This document shows, piece by piece, positions 4,269 through 55,355 of a stretch of 64,000 nt of DNA. Position 1 is the first letter of the stretch, and every line of letters starts with the position of its first letter. The notes beneath the pieces are model-generated. The model saw only the letters and a list, made by a program, of their open reading frames with translations, was not told the origin of the DNA and did not search any database. The stretch is from Octopus vulgaris (lineage: Eukaryota). The stretch lies in contig OX597826.1 of the NCBI GenBank assembly GCA_951406725.2, positions 37,882,001-37,946,000 on the forward strand, given 5' to 3'. A program made the position numbers and the translations under genes.

Positions 4269-4549
4269 TCAACCACCTGTGTTTCCCTCTGATATCTTAC
4301 AATCTGCTGGCTAAAAATGTTCAAATATATTTTCATTAATGTTTACTTACAAAAATAAAGCAAAAATTATTTTTATTTTCCAAAATGTTGTTGTTCTAGT
4401 TTGCTATTTTCATACTGGCTGAGGGAATTGAGCATTTTTAAAAGAAAAAATTATCATTCATATAAAATCCGAATTTTTACATAAAATATAAAAAAAGAAT
4501 TTATACGCAAAAGGAAATGGTTTACAGGCAAAATTAAATACGACAGAAA

Positions 4550-5819: not shown

Positions 5820-6215
5820 TTTTATCTTTTAGTTTCCAGTTGTTTTAGTCATTAGATTGCGACCATACTGCAGCACCACCTTGAAGGGATATAGTCGAAC
5901 ACATCAAACATAGTACTTAAGCATCCCTTTGAAGTTTCTTGCTTAAGCTAGGGCATATTTTGCTGAATCGCAGAACAAACCAACACCGGTTGTCAAATAG
6001 TAGAGAACAAATACAAACATACACACAAGCGCGCGCGCACATGCTTTTGCATACGACAGCTTTTTGGATAGTTCCCACCTACTAAATTCACTTATAAGGC
6101 ATTGTTTGGCCCGGGGTGAGACTAGAAGACACCAGCTCAAGGTACCGTGTCTTGGAACTGAACCTCAGCCAACGTAGTTCCACAGCCTTCTTCATAACCA
6201 CACAATCATGCCAAG
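5820..6215 (-). mobile_element. CORE-type tRNA-SINE, near full length
   Basis: Reverse complement matches the + copy at 43340-43732 (tail agtcattagattgcgaccatactg; body agaagacaccagctcaaggt; head ...ataaccacacaatc). Confidence 0.7.
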
Positions 6216-27948: not shown

Positions 27949-28266
27949 TCTGCCTGATTAATCGGTGTGCATCCAAAGCAATGAATAATTGTGTTCAAGG
28001 CAATGAATACGAAACCGGTATGCTTGAATCTCTTAAACATTTCACAACAATGACTTTTATTACTTTTATTCCTACCTCAGTTCATCTAATTGTATATATC
28101 TTTCATTACTTTTCATAAAAAGCCTTTACTTTTTTGATTTACAATGTGCATTTTCGTTGATTCTTCTTATTTTCCCCCTATGTATACATATATATATATA
28201 TATATATATATATGAAAAAACAAGTCAAAAATAGAAAATGCTAAGATGATTTTATAGTGAATCTTT

Positions 28267-28304
28267 CAGTACCGGTTTCGGTCATTTTGAGACCTTTTCA
28301 ACTG
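28267..28304 (-). ncRNA. Minimal type I hammerhead, U3-A8 core variant
   Basis: CAG-TTGAAAA-GGTC-TCAAAAT-GACC-GAAA-CCGG-TA-CTG. Confidence 0.75.
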
Positions 28305-28853
28305 TAACGATTAAATAATTAAATTTTGAAAAATTTAGAAAAATTAGAAGAAAGGTTTTTTTAAAGGAATACTTCCATAGTAGTGTTCAGATATATGTGG
28401 CATTCTGCCTTTCTCTGACTCCCTTGTTTGCACTTGTGTATTCGAGGTCGTTGTGAGTTCTTGAGGGGGTGGGAGTGGGAAAATCTGGGCTGGTCAGTGG
28501 CGACCGGCAGTCGCTGCGTAGGCGTTATACTTAAATACATTAGTGGGGGTAGAAGGTGGAGAAGTAGAAGCAGAAGAAGAAGATGACGGTGCCGATGATG
28601 ATGACGATGAAGAAGAAGAAGGAGAAGGAGAAGATGACGATGATGATGGTGGTGATGACGATGACGACGATGATGATGATAACGATGATGATGAAGAAGA
28701 AGAAGAAGAAGAGGGAGAAGAAGAAAAAAAACAGAGAAGGGAGAATATGAATGGGTGAAGATATAGCTGTTTTGGGGCGATTAGTAATGGATTCTATGGA
28801 ATGTAATATTTGTGTGTGTATATATATTTCTTTTATTCTTAAGTTGAGCTATA

Positions 28854-29682
28854 TTAATTGTTTGTCGTAGACCCGTTAAGAAGTGGCCTGTATTTTATAA
28901 TAAAGAGATTTTCTTTACTTATTCGTTGTCTCGAGGTTGTATCGTCCCTAAATTGGAAGAGGGGGAAAATTCTGAAGTTTGGTGTTTTTTTGTTGGCGCA
29001 AGTATCTATGTGTTGGCTAAAAGCTATTTTTCTGTTTTGGGGAATTTTTATCTGGGATCTGTGCAGGGCCATTCGTTTACGCAAACCATTTTTTGTTTGG
29101 CCTATGTACTGCTCTTGACACCCGGAGCAGGTTAGTGAGTATATTAGGTTCTCCGAAGCACATGTGAAGTTGCTTTTCACTGTAAACCGTTGTCCCTGTT
29201 TGAAGGAGAACTCAGAACCCTCGATTAGATAGTCGCATATCCCGCAATTGGGTCTTCCACATTTTTTTACTGTCGGCTTCTGTGTTGAAGAGTGAATTCG
29301 GGCTTGTGTTAGAAGACTTTTCATGGATCTAGGCTGTCTTTTGCTTTTTATGATCGTGTGTGTTTGGAGGATTGTGTTCATTCTGTGGTCTTTTTTTAGG
29401 AGGGGTATGTTGTGGAGGATGGTGCCGAAGGCTTCGTTATTGAGAGGGTTGTGTGTGGAGATGTATGGTAAGGCTTTTGGTTGTAAGTTTTTCTTTGATT
29501 TGGGATGTCTCAGTTCCTTGATGTTAAGTTGAAGGGCACGTTGAATGCACTTGTCAATAAGTGAAGGTGGATAGTTCCTGGTGATAAGGGTATCTTTTAG
29601 TTCTTGTAGTCGTGTGTCTCTGGTGTTTGCGTTAGAGACTATAGTGCATATCCTTTTTGCTAGATTGAAGGGGATATTGAAG

Positions 29683-29687
<5 letters not shown>
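28854..29687 (-). CDS. PLE ORF C-terminal part: RT thumb/linker plus GIY-YIG endonuclease (5'-truncated, stop-free)
   Basis: Hand translation extends the 28854..29381 ORF upstream without stops: IPFNLAKRICTIVS..RLQELKDTLITRNYP..LPYISTHNP..CGRPNCGIC..NLIYSLTCSGCQEQYIGQT..RMALHR..ENLFIIKYRPLLN. Confidence 0.85.
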
Positions 29688-29715
<28 letters not shown>

Positions 29716-29718
<3 letters not shown>

Positions 29719-30348
29719 ATTGTTTTTGTTAAGCAGCGTCGATTTTTACAATTCTGTAAATAATAATAATATTTTATAAGCTTAAAGCTTATTATAAGCG
29801 ATCACCGTGTAATGTCTAAAGTAAATAGTGTAAACTATATATACACCAACGTGTAAAGTAAATATACACCAATGCACAACCTACTTCTTTCCCTCTGATT
29901 TAAATCTGATTCAATCAATGAGGTGTGGGTTCGAGTCCCAACACGTATGAGGAAACCTACTTTTTTCTGTCGAGGGCCTATATGCCCCTTTACTAAACAT
30001 TTTAGTCTTTAGTCATTAGTCATTATTTACAGAATTGCAAAAATTGATGCTGCTTAACAAACGCCGTCGCAGTAAAAGTACATGAAAGTTTGTTTACAAA
30101 AACGACACTACAAACTAATTATTGTTCTTAAATCTGACGGAAAGAAGCAGGTTGTGCGTTGGTGTAAATGGCTAGCATACTCGGCGCAAAAACGAAGAGG
30201 GTTGGGTTCGAATCCCACGCGTACGGGAAAAACCTACTATTTTCCGTCGAGGGCTTATATACACCATTATTAAACAATTTTCTTTAGTCATTGCGCAGCG
30301 ATCGACTTTACGCTTTAAGCTTATAAAATATTATTATTATTATGTACA

Positions 30349-37076: not shown

Positions 37077-37126
<50 letters not shown>

Positions 37127-37128
<2 letters not shown>

Positions 37129-38097
37129 AAAAAAGGCAAGATAGAAAATGCTAAAATAATTTTATAAAAAACATTTCAGTACCGGTTTCAGTCATTGAGA
37201 CTTTTTCAACTGTAACAATTAGATAATTAAATTTAGAAAAATTAAAAGATAAGTTTTTTAAAAGAATATTTGTATAGTGTTCAAATACAAGTGGCATTTT
37301 CCTTGTTTCTGCCTGTCTCTGTCTCTCTTGTTTACTCTTGTGGGTTCGAGGTCGTTGTGAATTCTTGGTAGGGAAGAAGAAGAAGAAGAAGAAGAAGAAG
37401 AAGAAGAAGAAGAAGGAAAAGAAGGGGGAGAAGGAGGAGGAGGAGGAGGAGGAGGAGGAGGAGGAGGAGGAAGAGAAGAAAAATGTGGGAGTACCATGAC
37501 AGTAGTATTTTGAATGATCAACAAATGACCCACAGTGGATGGTAGCAGTTGCTGTTCAGTTCATGAAAATATGTCTTTTGAATGTCTTGTTTATAGAATT
37601 TGCGTAGGTGTTATTCTAAACAGCATTAGTGATAAAGTTAGGAAGGAGAAGGAATGAGAAGAAGAAGAAGAAGAAGAAGAAGAAGAAGAAGAAGAAGAAG
37701 AAGAAGAAGAAGAAAGGAGAATAAGAGGGAATGTAGATAGTGTGAAAGTTGTAAGGTGTTAAATGACTTAAAATTGGCACGTTATGGATTCTAGCAGTGA
37801 TTGAGACTGTTTTTTAATGAATTCTTGGCAATCTCTTGAGTGTATCATTTTAAATATTTGCGTGTGTATTTGTGTTATTCTAAGGCCGAGGTGGATATGT
37901 CGTTTGCCGTAGACGTGTTCAGAAGAGGCCTGTATTTTGTAATAAAGAGAGTTTCTTTACTAATTCGTTTCAATCATTGAGACTTTTTCAACTGTAACAA
38001 TTAAATAATTAAATTTAGAAAAATTAAAAGAAAAGTTTTTTTTAAAGGAATATTTGTATAGTGTTCAAATACAAGTGGCATTTTCCTTGTTTCTGCC
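37127..38097 (-). mobile_element. PLE 3' region with partial tandem pseudo-LTR (family of 28214)
   Basis: 37185-37313 is repeated at 37967-38097; degenerate GIY-YIG end at 37895-37965. Confidence 0.85.
37177..37212 (-). ncRNA. Minimal hammerhead, U3-A8 variant
   Basis: CAG-TTGAAAA-AGTC-TCAAT-GACT-GAAA-CCGG-TA-CTG. Confidence 0.75.
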
Positions 38098-53834: not shown

Positions 53835-54135
53835 TGTAGTTGGAATTTACAAAAAAAAAACAAAAGACGAAGGCAAGTGTAAAACAGGCAAAGGCAGGTG
53901 TAAAAAAAACAGGAGACGAAGATGGGTGTGTAAACAACAAACAGGTGTAATAATTTAACGCTCGGTAAGGTGAGAAAGTATTTTATGTTTCGAACCTAAG
54001 CTCTTCAAAAGAAAGGAACACGATGAAATAAACAGAGAGAATAAAAAGCATTAGTGGATAGCAGTCAGTCATGGCGATGGCCGGACAGGGGTGGTCAGAC
54101 AGGAGAGCTAGGAAGAAGGTGAGATAATAAAGTTG
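53835..54135 (-). mobile_element. Family B PLE-terminus element with decayed hammerhead (53980-54016)
   Basis: Sense CCTTT-CTTTTGA-A-GAGC-TTAG-GTTC-GAAA-CA-TA-AAAT. Confidence 0.6.
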
Positions 54136-54144
54136 ATATGTATA

Positions 54145-55322
54145 AGGAAAACAGGACAAGGTAGAAAATGCTAAAATAATTTTATCATGAAGAACATTTT
54201 AGTACCGGTTTCAGACTTTGTGACGTTTTCAACTTAGAGTAAAGTATGTGAAACAATTAAATTGTGGAAAAATTAAATTAAATGTTTTTTAAAAAAATAT
54301 AGTCCATAGTCTTTAAATAGGTGGAGCATTTTCCTTCACTCTCTCTCTATTACTCTTACTTTTGTAAAGGCTCTGTAGGCACGTAGGTAGGTAGGTAGGT
54401 AGGTACGTACGTACGTACGTACGTACGTAGGTAGGTACGTAGGTACGTAGGTAGGTACGTAGGTAGGTACGTAGGTAGGTAGGTAGGTAGGTAGGTAGAT
54501 ATGTAGGTAGCAGATCTGAAGAAATATTTAATATGAGTGATGTTGTTTCTAGATTTTGATTGTTTAAGTAGCAGTGGCCGAGTAAGGAGACAGCGAAGAA
54601 GAAGAAGAAGAAGAAGAAGAAGAAGAAGAAGAAGAAGAAGAAGAAGAAGAAGAAGAAGAAGAAGAAGAAGAAGAAGAAGAAGAAAACGGGTGTGGTATGA
54701 CAGTAGTAGACTACTCATAGAGTCTTCTTAAGTTACTTAAAAGTGACCTATTGTGGTTATAGATTCATGGGTAGCAAATGTTCTGAATATATCGTTTTTA
54801 ATATTTGCGTGTGTATTATTCTAAGACCTTTGTAGTAGTGTCATTTGTGGTGGACACATTCAAAAGGGGTTTACATTTTGTGATAAAATATGACTCTTTG
54901 CTAATGCGCTGATAGTGGTTGCGTCGTCCCTGAATTTATAGAGGGGGAAAATCCTGAAGTTGGGTTGTTAGTGGCGCAAATGTCGATGTGTTTGCTGAAT
55001 GCTATTTTTCTGTATTCCCGGATTTTAATCTAGGGTCTATGTAGAGTCACTCTTTGGTGTAGAATGTTTTTGGTTTGGCCTATATATTGCTCTCGACACT
55101 CTGAGCAAGTTAATACATATATTAGATTTTCCGAAGCACATGTGAAGTTGTTTTCACTGTAAAACGTTGATCTTGTTTGAAGGAGAACTCTGATCCTTCA
55201 ATTAAATTGACGCATATATTGAGGGATCGGAGTTCTTCAAATAAGGTCAACGTTTTACAGAGAAAAACAACTTCACATATGCCTCAGAAAACCTAATATA
55301 TATATTAACTTGCTCAGGGTGT
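54145..55322 (-). mobile_element. Degenerate PLE (family of 28214) with 5' inversion
   Basis: GIY-YIG remnant at 54835-55215 aligns with 28860-29240; 55218-55322 is an inverted copy of ~55096-55203; U3-A8 hammerhead remnant at 54200-54235. Confidence 0.85.
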
Positions 55323-55355
55323 AAATTTGCATTATACTAAATTATAGGCCAGCCA

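Follow-up and report, generated by a model that had tools for sequence, protein, structure and literature searches.

A minimal type I hammerhead motif with a U3-A8 core in the pseudo-LTRs of Penelope-like elements of Octopus vulgaris

The window analysed here is a 64,000-nucleotide stretch of the Octopus vulgaris genome (assembly GCA_951406725.2, contig OX597826.1, positions 37,882,001 to 37,946,000). At 28267..28304, its minus strand carries a predicted minimal type I hammerhead in which the 3-8 pair is U3-A8, and thus still Watson-Crick, while the remaining core bases are canonical; the stem III palindrome, ACCGGU, is followed by A17, giving an NUH cut site (Table 1). An earlier note on this DNA, made from its letters, had placed the motif at these coordinates and had described a second copy, at 37177-37212, with an identical core and a stem II of AGUC/GACU. 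Both descriptions hold, and the remnants that it listed at 37967-37994 and 54200-54235 are indeed further copies, each of them damaged. All four motifs belong to one clade of Penelope-like elements (PLEs), composed of families A and B, and all four lie on the minus strand within 64 kb; genome-wide, such motifs occur at about 2 per Mb.

Table 1. Hammerhead motifs, their parts and the elements that contain them in the window
Feature	Position	Strand	Remarks
Minimal type I hammerhead, subfamily A1, U3-A8 core	28267..28304	minus	predicted cut between 28270 and 28269
Core box, positions 3-9	28295..28301	minus	U3 = 28301, A8 = 28296; aligned to Rfam HH9 core
Stem II, GGUC/GACC	28280..28294	minus	4 bp, 7-nt loop
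Stem I strands	CAG 28304-28302; CUG 28269-28267	minus	
G12-A14; A17	28279-28277; 28270	minus	
Palindrome ACCGGU, six bases	28271..28276	minus	predicted intermolecular stem III of dimer; co-fold pair probabilities 0.91-0.99
5'-truncated Penelope-like copy, subfamily A1	28206..29690	minus	TA microsatellite at both ends
3' part of ORF2	28854..29690	minus	RT thumb end, CX4CX2C linker, GIY-YIG endonuclease with CCHH
Hammerhead, subfamily A2	37177..37212	minus	A10.1-U11.1, 5-nt loop II, stem II AGUC/GACU, same core
Older A2 copy, partial tandem	37108..38095	minus	pLTR piece, ORF2 end, full pLTR
Hammerhead ending inside stem III	37967..37994	minus	joined to endonuclease end of next piece
Hammerhead, old subfamily A3	54200..54235	minus	core and stem III intact, stem II damaged
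Decayed A3 copy	54130..55325	minus	short 5' inversion (55218-55325)

About 550 bases upstream of the hammerhead at 28267..28304 lies the stop of a reading frame (28854-29801). This frame ends with a GIY-YIG domain, a match that narrowly misses the curated cut-off (Pfam E 3.5e-4), and a longer copy has an RT+EN protein to which the frame is 94% identical. The element protein matches RVT_1 (E 2.9e-8) and GIY-YIG (E 1.5e-4) and contains a CX4CX2C linker and CCHH. As had been proposed, the motif is attached to a GIY-YIG PLE: it sits in the 3' pseudo-LTR (pLTR) of an element whose protein runs from RT to GIY-YIG with CCHH. The 3' end of this copy is found 64 bases past the predicted cut, inside the TA microsatellite. 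Longer copies are built as is usual for Penelope elements, with inverted 5' pLTRs, with units in direct tandem, with TA targets and with a 3' end that is either short or tailed. From motif to motif, a tandem unit spans 4,423 bases. Two neighbouring units agree at 4,409 of the 4,412 bases aligned, so subfamily A1 is young. Contigs of four runs guessed to be RNA cover the region, such contigs showing neither ends nor strand. The predicted scissile bond would come 5 bases after the junction at 37967, where there is a short sequence overlap with the endonuclease end; the junction has the look of a template switch. MicroRNA-like hairpin matches of Rfam at 55098-55325 are accounted for by the inverted 5' part of the A3 copy.

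Full A1 units contain two open reading frames. ORF1 encodes 411 residues from an AUG; ORF2 spans 784 codons counted from a stop, and its first Met falls well inside the conserved region. ORF2 is in the -1 frame relative to ORF1, with which it shares 61 bases, and a U UUU UUA heptamer lies in the ORF1 frame. B1 and B3 units share this two-ORF layout and its -1 slippery heptamer, and U UUU UU(A/G) is present at the ORF junction in 8 of the 20 related loci examined; these eight are all of the rows of the same tree branch (support 99) that have an intact ORF2 start. Three more distant rows that were examined have one long frame and no ORF split. The loci with two ORFs and heptamer are L166-L170, L037, L269, L171-L174, L179-L181 and L251. 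ORF1 of A1 is homologous to that of B3, L172, L173 and L181 (24-35% identity, E 1e-75 to 1e-23); searches with ORF1 gave no Pfam family below E 0.1 and no usable Atlas match. The C-terminal part of ORF1 is low-complexity and basic. When the 70 bases downstream of the heptamer were folded without pseudoknots in 11 elements, no consistent hairpin that might stimulate frameshifting emerged (z +1.3 to -2.4). The frameshift layout of the A/B clade may already be known to science. The abstract of Craig et al. (2021) presents canonical EN+ elements as single-ORF, and the legend to its Fig. 1 mentions an ORF1 set apart by a frameshift plus pseudoknot, in a clade that cannot be told from the text (PMC8557442; this and the other papers are cited for the parts of their text that were available). 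Beyond that legend, no description of a two-ORF layout was found in the literature searched, outside of which the Terminon paper lies.

Rfam Hammerhead_HH9 (RF02275) aligns to the motif at 28267..28304 with 22.9 bits (E 0.0013 on 241 bases), compared with a gathering score of 52, and is absent among the best 150 of the 415 Rfam rows for the whole window. Because the score is under the gathering threshold, standard annotation overlooks the motif. The expectation that searches for CUGAnGA would miss it is likewise correct. Within the 64-kb window, a loose motif pattern gives 9 matches where 2.0 are expected, a number that none of 100 shuffles reaches; four of the nine are the copies described above. 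The genome-wide search that the earlier note had called for, with its own U3-A8 pattern, returns 5,612 matches in 2.8 Gb versus 10 for the reversed control; the motif is family-wide. A C3-G8 core on the same stem III gives 25 matches genome-wide (control, 9). Canonical cores in other families give 19,776 matches versus 1,546 in the control, or roughly 18,000 C3-G8 minimal hammerheads in several families, counted by pattern irrespective of PLE ORFs. C3-A8 single mutants number 89 (control, 6), and U3-G8 motifs outside subfamily B3 about 66-85, a hand estimate based on the first 100 of 194 rows and the exact count of B3. An excess of C3-G8 double revertants was considered and rejected, as 3 family-A motifs among the 25 matches, with 1.0-1.3 expected from the single mutants, is not significant (P = 0.08-0.13). 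A-to-I editing as a source of A8G changes was rejected as well: sporadic changes of A to G at position 8 do not outnumber those of U to C at position 3, and so there is no footprint of it.

The U3-A8 matches split into family A (subfamilies A1 to A4), in which 2-3 bp of stem I adjoin the core and stem II has 4 bp, and family B (719 U3-A8 matches), in which stem I has 7 bp and stem II has 2 bp. RT-EN proteins of the two families are 52-61% identical. The earlier note had staked its reading on the core box and the stems being better conserved than the flanking pLTR sequence, and so they are. The 7-base core box and the next 10 bases do not differ between A and B, which have all 17 bases of core and stem III in common, whereas the flanks align no better than shuffles: between A1 and B1, flank similarity is 0.64 versus 0.66 for shuffles upstream and 0.57 versus 0.62 downstream, by a gapped measure that inflates real and shuffled values alike. 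The stem changes, moreover, are compensatory, as had been claimed for stem II. Pair 2.1:1.1 is G-C or U-A, depending on the subfamily; 2.3:1.3 is C-G, U-A or A-U; 10.1:11.1 is G-C or A-U; and 10.2:11.2 is G-C or C-G, with U-A in B2. G10.1-C11.1 is present in 27 of 32 cases in A1 and in 30 of 30 in B1, and A-U in 9 of 12 in A2; no base intervenes between 9 and 10.1, and helix II has 2-4 bp. Since most loci were chosen by their core, core counts in them are circular; in five array loci that were picked by ORF DNA (two of which overlap), and for which the count is non-circular, all 12 motif matches are U3-A8.

Related elements came from an alignment-based scan, which gave 80 metagenome and 18 genome-contig loci; a single-protein scan of metagenomes gave no matches. 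Genome-contig loci L251-L268 are probably animal or host DNA that contaminates bacterial genome bins. Hammerheads in the relatives were assigned by descriptor and by eye, with the assignments for L181 and L255 being less sure. The RT tree, a quick search with SH-aLRT support only and no named reference PLE, holds 47 of 49 rows (L177 and L178 were dropped as too short). In this tree, A and B form one branch (support 100) within a group (support 97) whose other six motif-bearing rows are all C3-G8. Because the nearest motif-bearing relatives are C3-G8, U3-A8 is derived in A+B. L172, L173, L174 and L177 carry the same ACCGGU stem III, and the swap would have arisen once in the A/B ancestor, from a C3-G8 motif with that stem III, as the relatives suggest. 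Mapped on the whole tree, U3-A8 requires six changes, of which five or more are forced by well-supported branches; the swap has thus arisen repeatedly in PLEs. Independent U3-A8 cores are seen in the distant PLEs L189, L208, L233, L255 and perhaps L181, three of which have the seven-base core box of the octopus motif. In the close C3-G8 relatives L173, L174, L175 and L252, stem II is closed by a U-U mismatch at 10.1-11.1.

Subfamily B3 has a core with a U3-G8 wobble. A U3-G8 search gives 194 matches, and some two thirds of the first 100 are B3; 106 B3 copies are exact over 35 bases, and the first 100 rows distribute the subfamily over at least 21 contigs. B3 is the sister of B1, with proteins that are 94-98% identical and flank similarities of 0.83 and 0.92, and G8 is therefore derived in B3. 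Between GU and stem I, a base is missing from all 25 B3 copies listed but from only 1 of 28 B1 copies; this exceptional B1-type copy, L312, has lost the base and kept A8. As a result, stem I in B3 either takes in A17 or has a bulged U2.1. B3 insertions end in the same way as those of B1, one copy is a tandem, and one has an open 775-codon ORF2. The B3 loci are L269-L284, L287 and L288; in L270, for example, the motif lies on the minus strand, near 5890 on that strand. At L269, a full-length A1 unit directly abuts a B3 pLTR, so an element of one family must have landed in or next to one of the other. B3 is young and its motif looks disabled, yet the subfamily has spread, making it a possible natural knockout. 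This spread may mean that cutting is dispensable for jumping; B3 may also be moved in trans by the B1 protein.

Folding bears on how the motif could act. The co-fold of two window copies has an energy of -26.1 kcal/mol, and the helices of the dimeric hammerhead have probabilities above 0.9. A monomer with a one-pair stem III reaches -0.2 kcal/mol versus a monomer minimum of -9.3, placing the active fold about 9 kcal/mol above. For the window copy of A2, the dimer helices have probabilities of only 0.13-0.16, and stem II of B2 has a probability of 0.1. The suggestion that the palindromic stem III permits a dimer is supported in that the fold is favoured in silico, though it is weak for A2 and B2. 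In the proposed mechanism, a transcript running through two pLTRs would pair both ACCGGU palindromes to form a shared 6-bp stem III, and the dimer would exchange stem I strands and cut after GUA. Cutting, possibly assisted by the element protein, would release a unit-length RNA that starts 123 bases before the ORF1 AUG. Genomic copies extend 64 or more bases beyond an intact cut site. Because copies run past the intact site, the template that was reverse transcribed must have been uncut or re-ligated there, and cutting is therefore probably a modest, non-essential processing step. A search for copies that end right after GUA gave 112 matches, and the 30 that were inspected include no clean end at the cut site; most are an unrelated short repeat, and those of family A are small indels. 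The motif is probably a minimal type I U3-A8 hammerhead in the pLTR of a large EN+ PLE clade, likely to self-cut slowly and only as a dimer.

The U3-A8 core is not the novelty that the earlier note had implied. In 2011, Perreault et al. already described U3-A8 covariation in natural hammerheads and stated that U3-A8 ribozymes are active in vitro (PMC3088659), and in Schistosoma mansoni PLEs the variant has its own descriptor, with about 1,300 matches (Cervera and de la Pena 2014, PMC4209133). Minimal hammerheads of Schistosoma cut weakly as dimers and not at all as monomers, the available text not stating that the tested motif was U3-A8 (PMC4209133). A scan of a type III hammerhead found low activity in all 3-8 double mutants except G3-C8 (Roberts et al., PMC9901934), and the published data on U3-A8 activity are in conflict. 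In the Anolis element PAc, cutting depended on protein, insertion in vitro was unimpaired by catalytic mutations, and none of the RNA reads had an end at the cut site (Frangieh et al. 2024, PMC11167929). The literature searched holds no report of U3-A8 for the A/B clade, although the variant catalogue of Lunse et al. (2017) may include it; the motif adds a host and a clade to the known U3-A8 list.

Like the U3-A8 hammerheads of the Schistosoma Cercyon PLEs, the octopus motifs are type I and located in the pLTR, retain a palindromic stem III remnant and follow the logic of a dimer; both also show U3-A8 covariation and thousands of mostly solitary copies (PMC4209133). Unlike the described metazoan PLE hammerheads, they have a helix II of 2-4 rather than 7-8 bp, no extra base between A9 and 10.1, and A10.1-U11.1 in A2 and A3, and the host and element clade are different; the extra base, G10.1-C11.1 and a long helix II are described as typical, not universal, and the available text mentions no U3-G8 subfamily (PMC4209133). 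The U3-A8 pair and a 2-bp stem II were noted among the natural hammerheads of Perreault et al., but as scattered examples rather than in a retrotransposon clade (PMC3088659). Rfam HH9 has the type I topology, an alignable core and a similar loop II, but the octopus motif differs by its short stem I, its lack of a stem III loop and its U3-A8 pair. The element itself resembles the EN+ PLEs Neptune and Nematis in its C-terminal GIY-YIG with CCHH, CX4CX2C linker, GxKF and DKG motifs, TA targets, tails, inverted 5' pLTRs and tandems, and departs from canonical single-ORF EN+ PLEs in having two ORFs with a -1 slippery site (PMC8557442). Its RT-EN linker agrees with the CX2-5CxxC of Neptune, a feature that is common to Nematis and so non-diagnostic alone. 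With PAc, a Poseidon element of Anolis, it shares a pLTR hammerhead and internal RT start sites that yield two 3' ends; PAc, however, has a C3-G8 core and a single ORF that begins inside the ribozyme (PMC11167929).

The reading that comes closest to rivalling a slow dimeric ribozyme, though we think it unlikely, is that the fold has been retained as a signal, structural or for the binding of protein (pLTR dimerisation, RT-EN loading), with cutting negligible or vestigial and U3-A8 a tolerated step of decay under weak constraint. Such a signal would agree with the spread of B3 with a disrupted motif, with L312, in which loss of the base would have come first and core decay later, and with the fact that copies always contain the intact site; the PAc result (PMC11167929) and the low activity of U3-A8 in one scan (PMC9901934) point in the same direction. 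However, every catalytic position (G5, A6, A9, G12, A13, A14, A15.1-U16.1 and H17) is the same in A and B against randomised flanks, and a scaffold would not obviously need positions 3 and 8 to change as a pair, as they do at five or more places in the tree. Movement of B3 in trans would weaken its testimony, and the subfamily is small (106 copies versus 719 B-type U3-A8 matches).

It is very improbable that the A1 motif works as a fast monomeric hammerhead through contacts between loops I and II. A GUUAC stretch and a CAAAA loop common to A1 and the Rfam HH9 consensus would speak for this idea, as would a stem I that can be extended across an internal loop, but only 3 bp of stem I adjoin the core versus 6 in HH9 (4-base gaps in the alignment), no room exists for a stem III hairpin, and family B is without both HH9-like elements. 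Least credible of all is a chance resemblance multiplied by the copying of one repeat. The motif is indeed short and A-rich, and identity within a family is uninformative on selection; nevertheless, conservation across families with unrelated flanks and different stems refutes it, and the position and architecture of the motif match those of the C3-G8 hammerheads of related elements.

With a slow, dimeric hammerhead as the preferred reading, the clade can tentatively be viewed as a natural mutagenesis series that extends from C3-G8 relatives through the U3-A8 core of A and B to an apparently dead B3 motif with more than 100 normal insertions. Such a series would suggest that cleavage is dispensable for Penelope retrotransposition, in elements whose RT-endonuclease would be made through a conserved -1 frameshift from a separate ORF1. 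For annotation, searches with CUGAnGA undercount hammerheads, since this genome contains about 5,600 U3-A8 motifs in addition to roughly 18,000 canonical ones. The near-identical B1 and B3, one with an intact and the other with a disrupted motif, together with intact-looking ORFs and young arrays, make the role of cutting in the spread of these elements directly testable.
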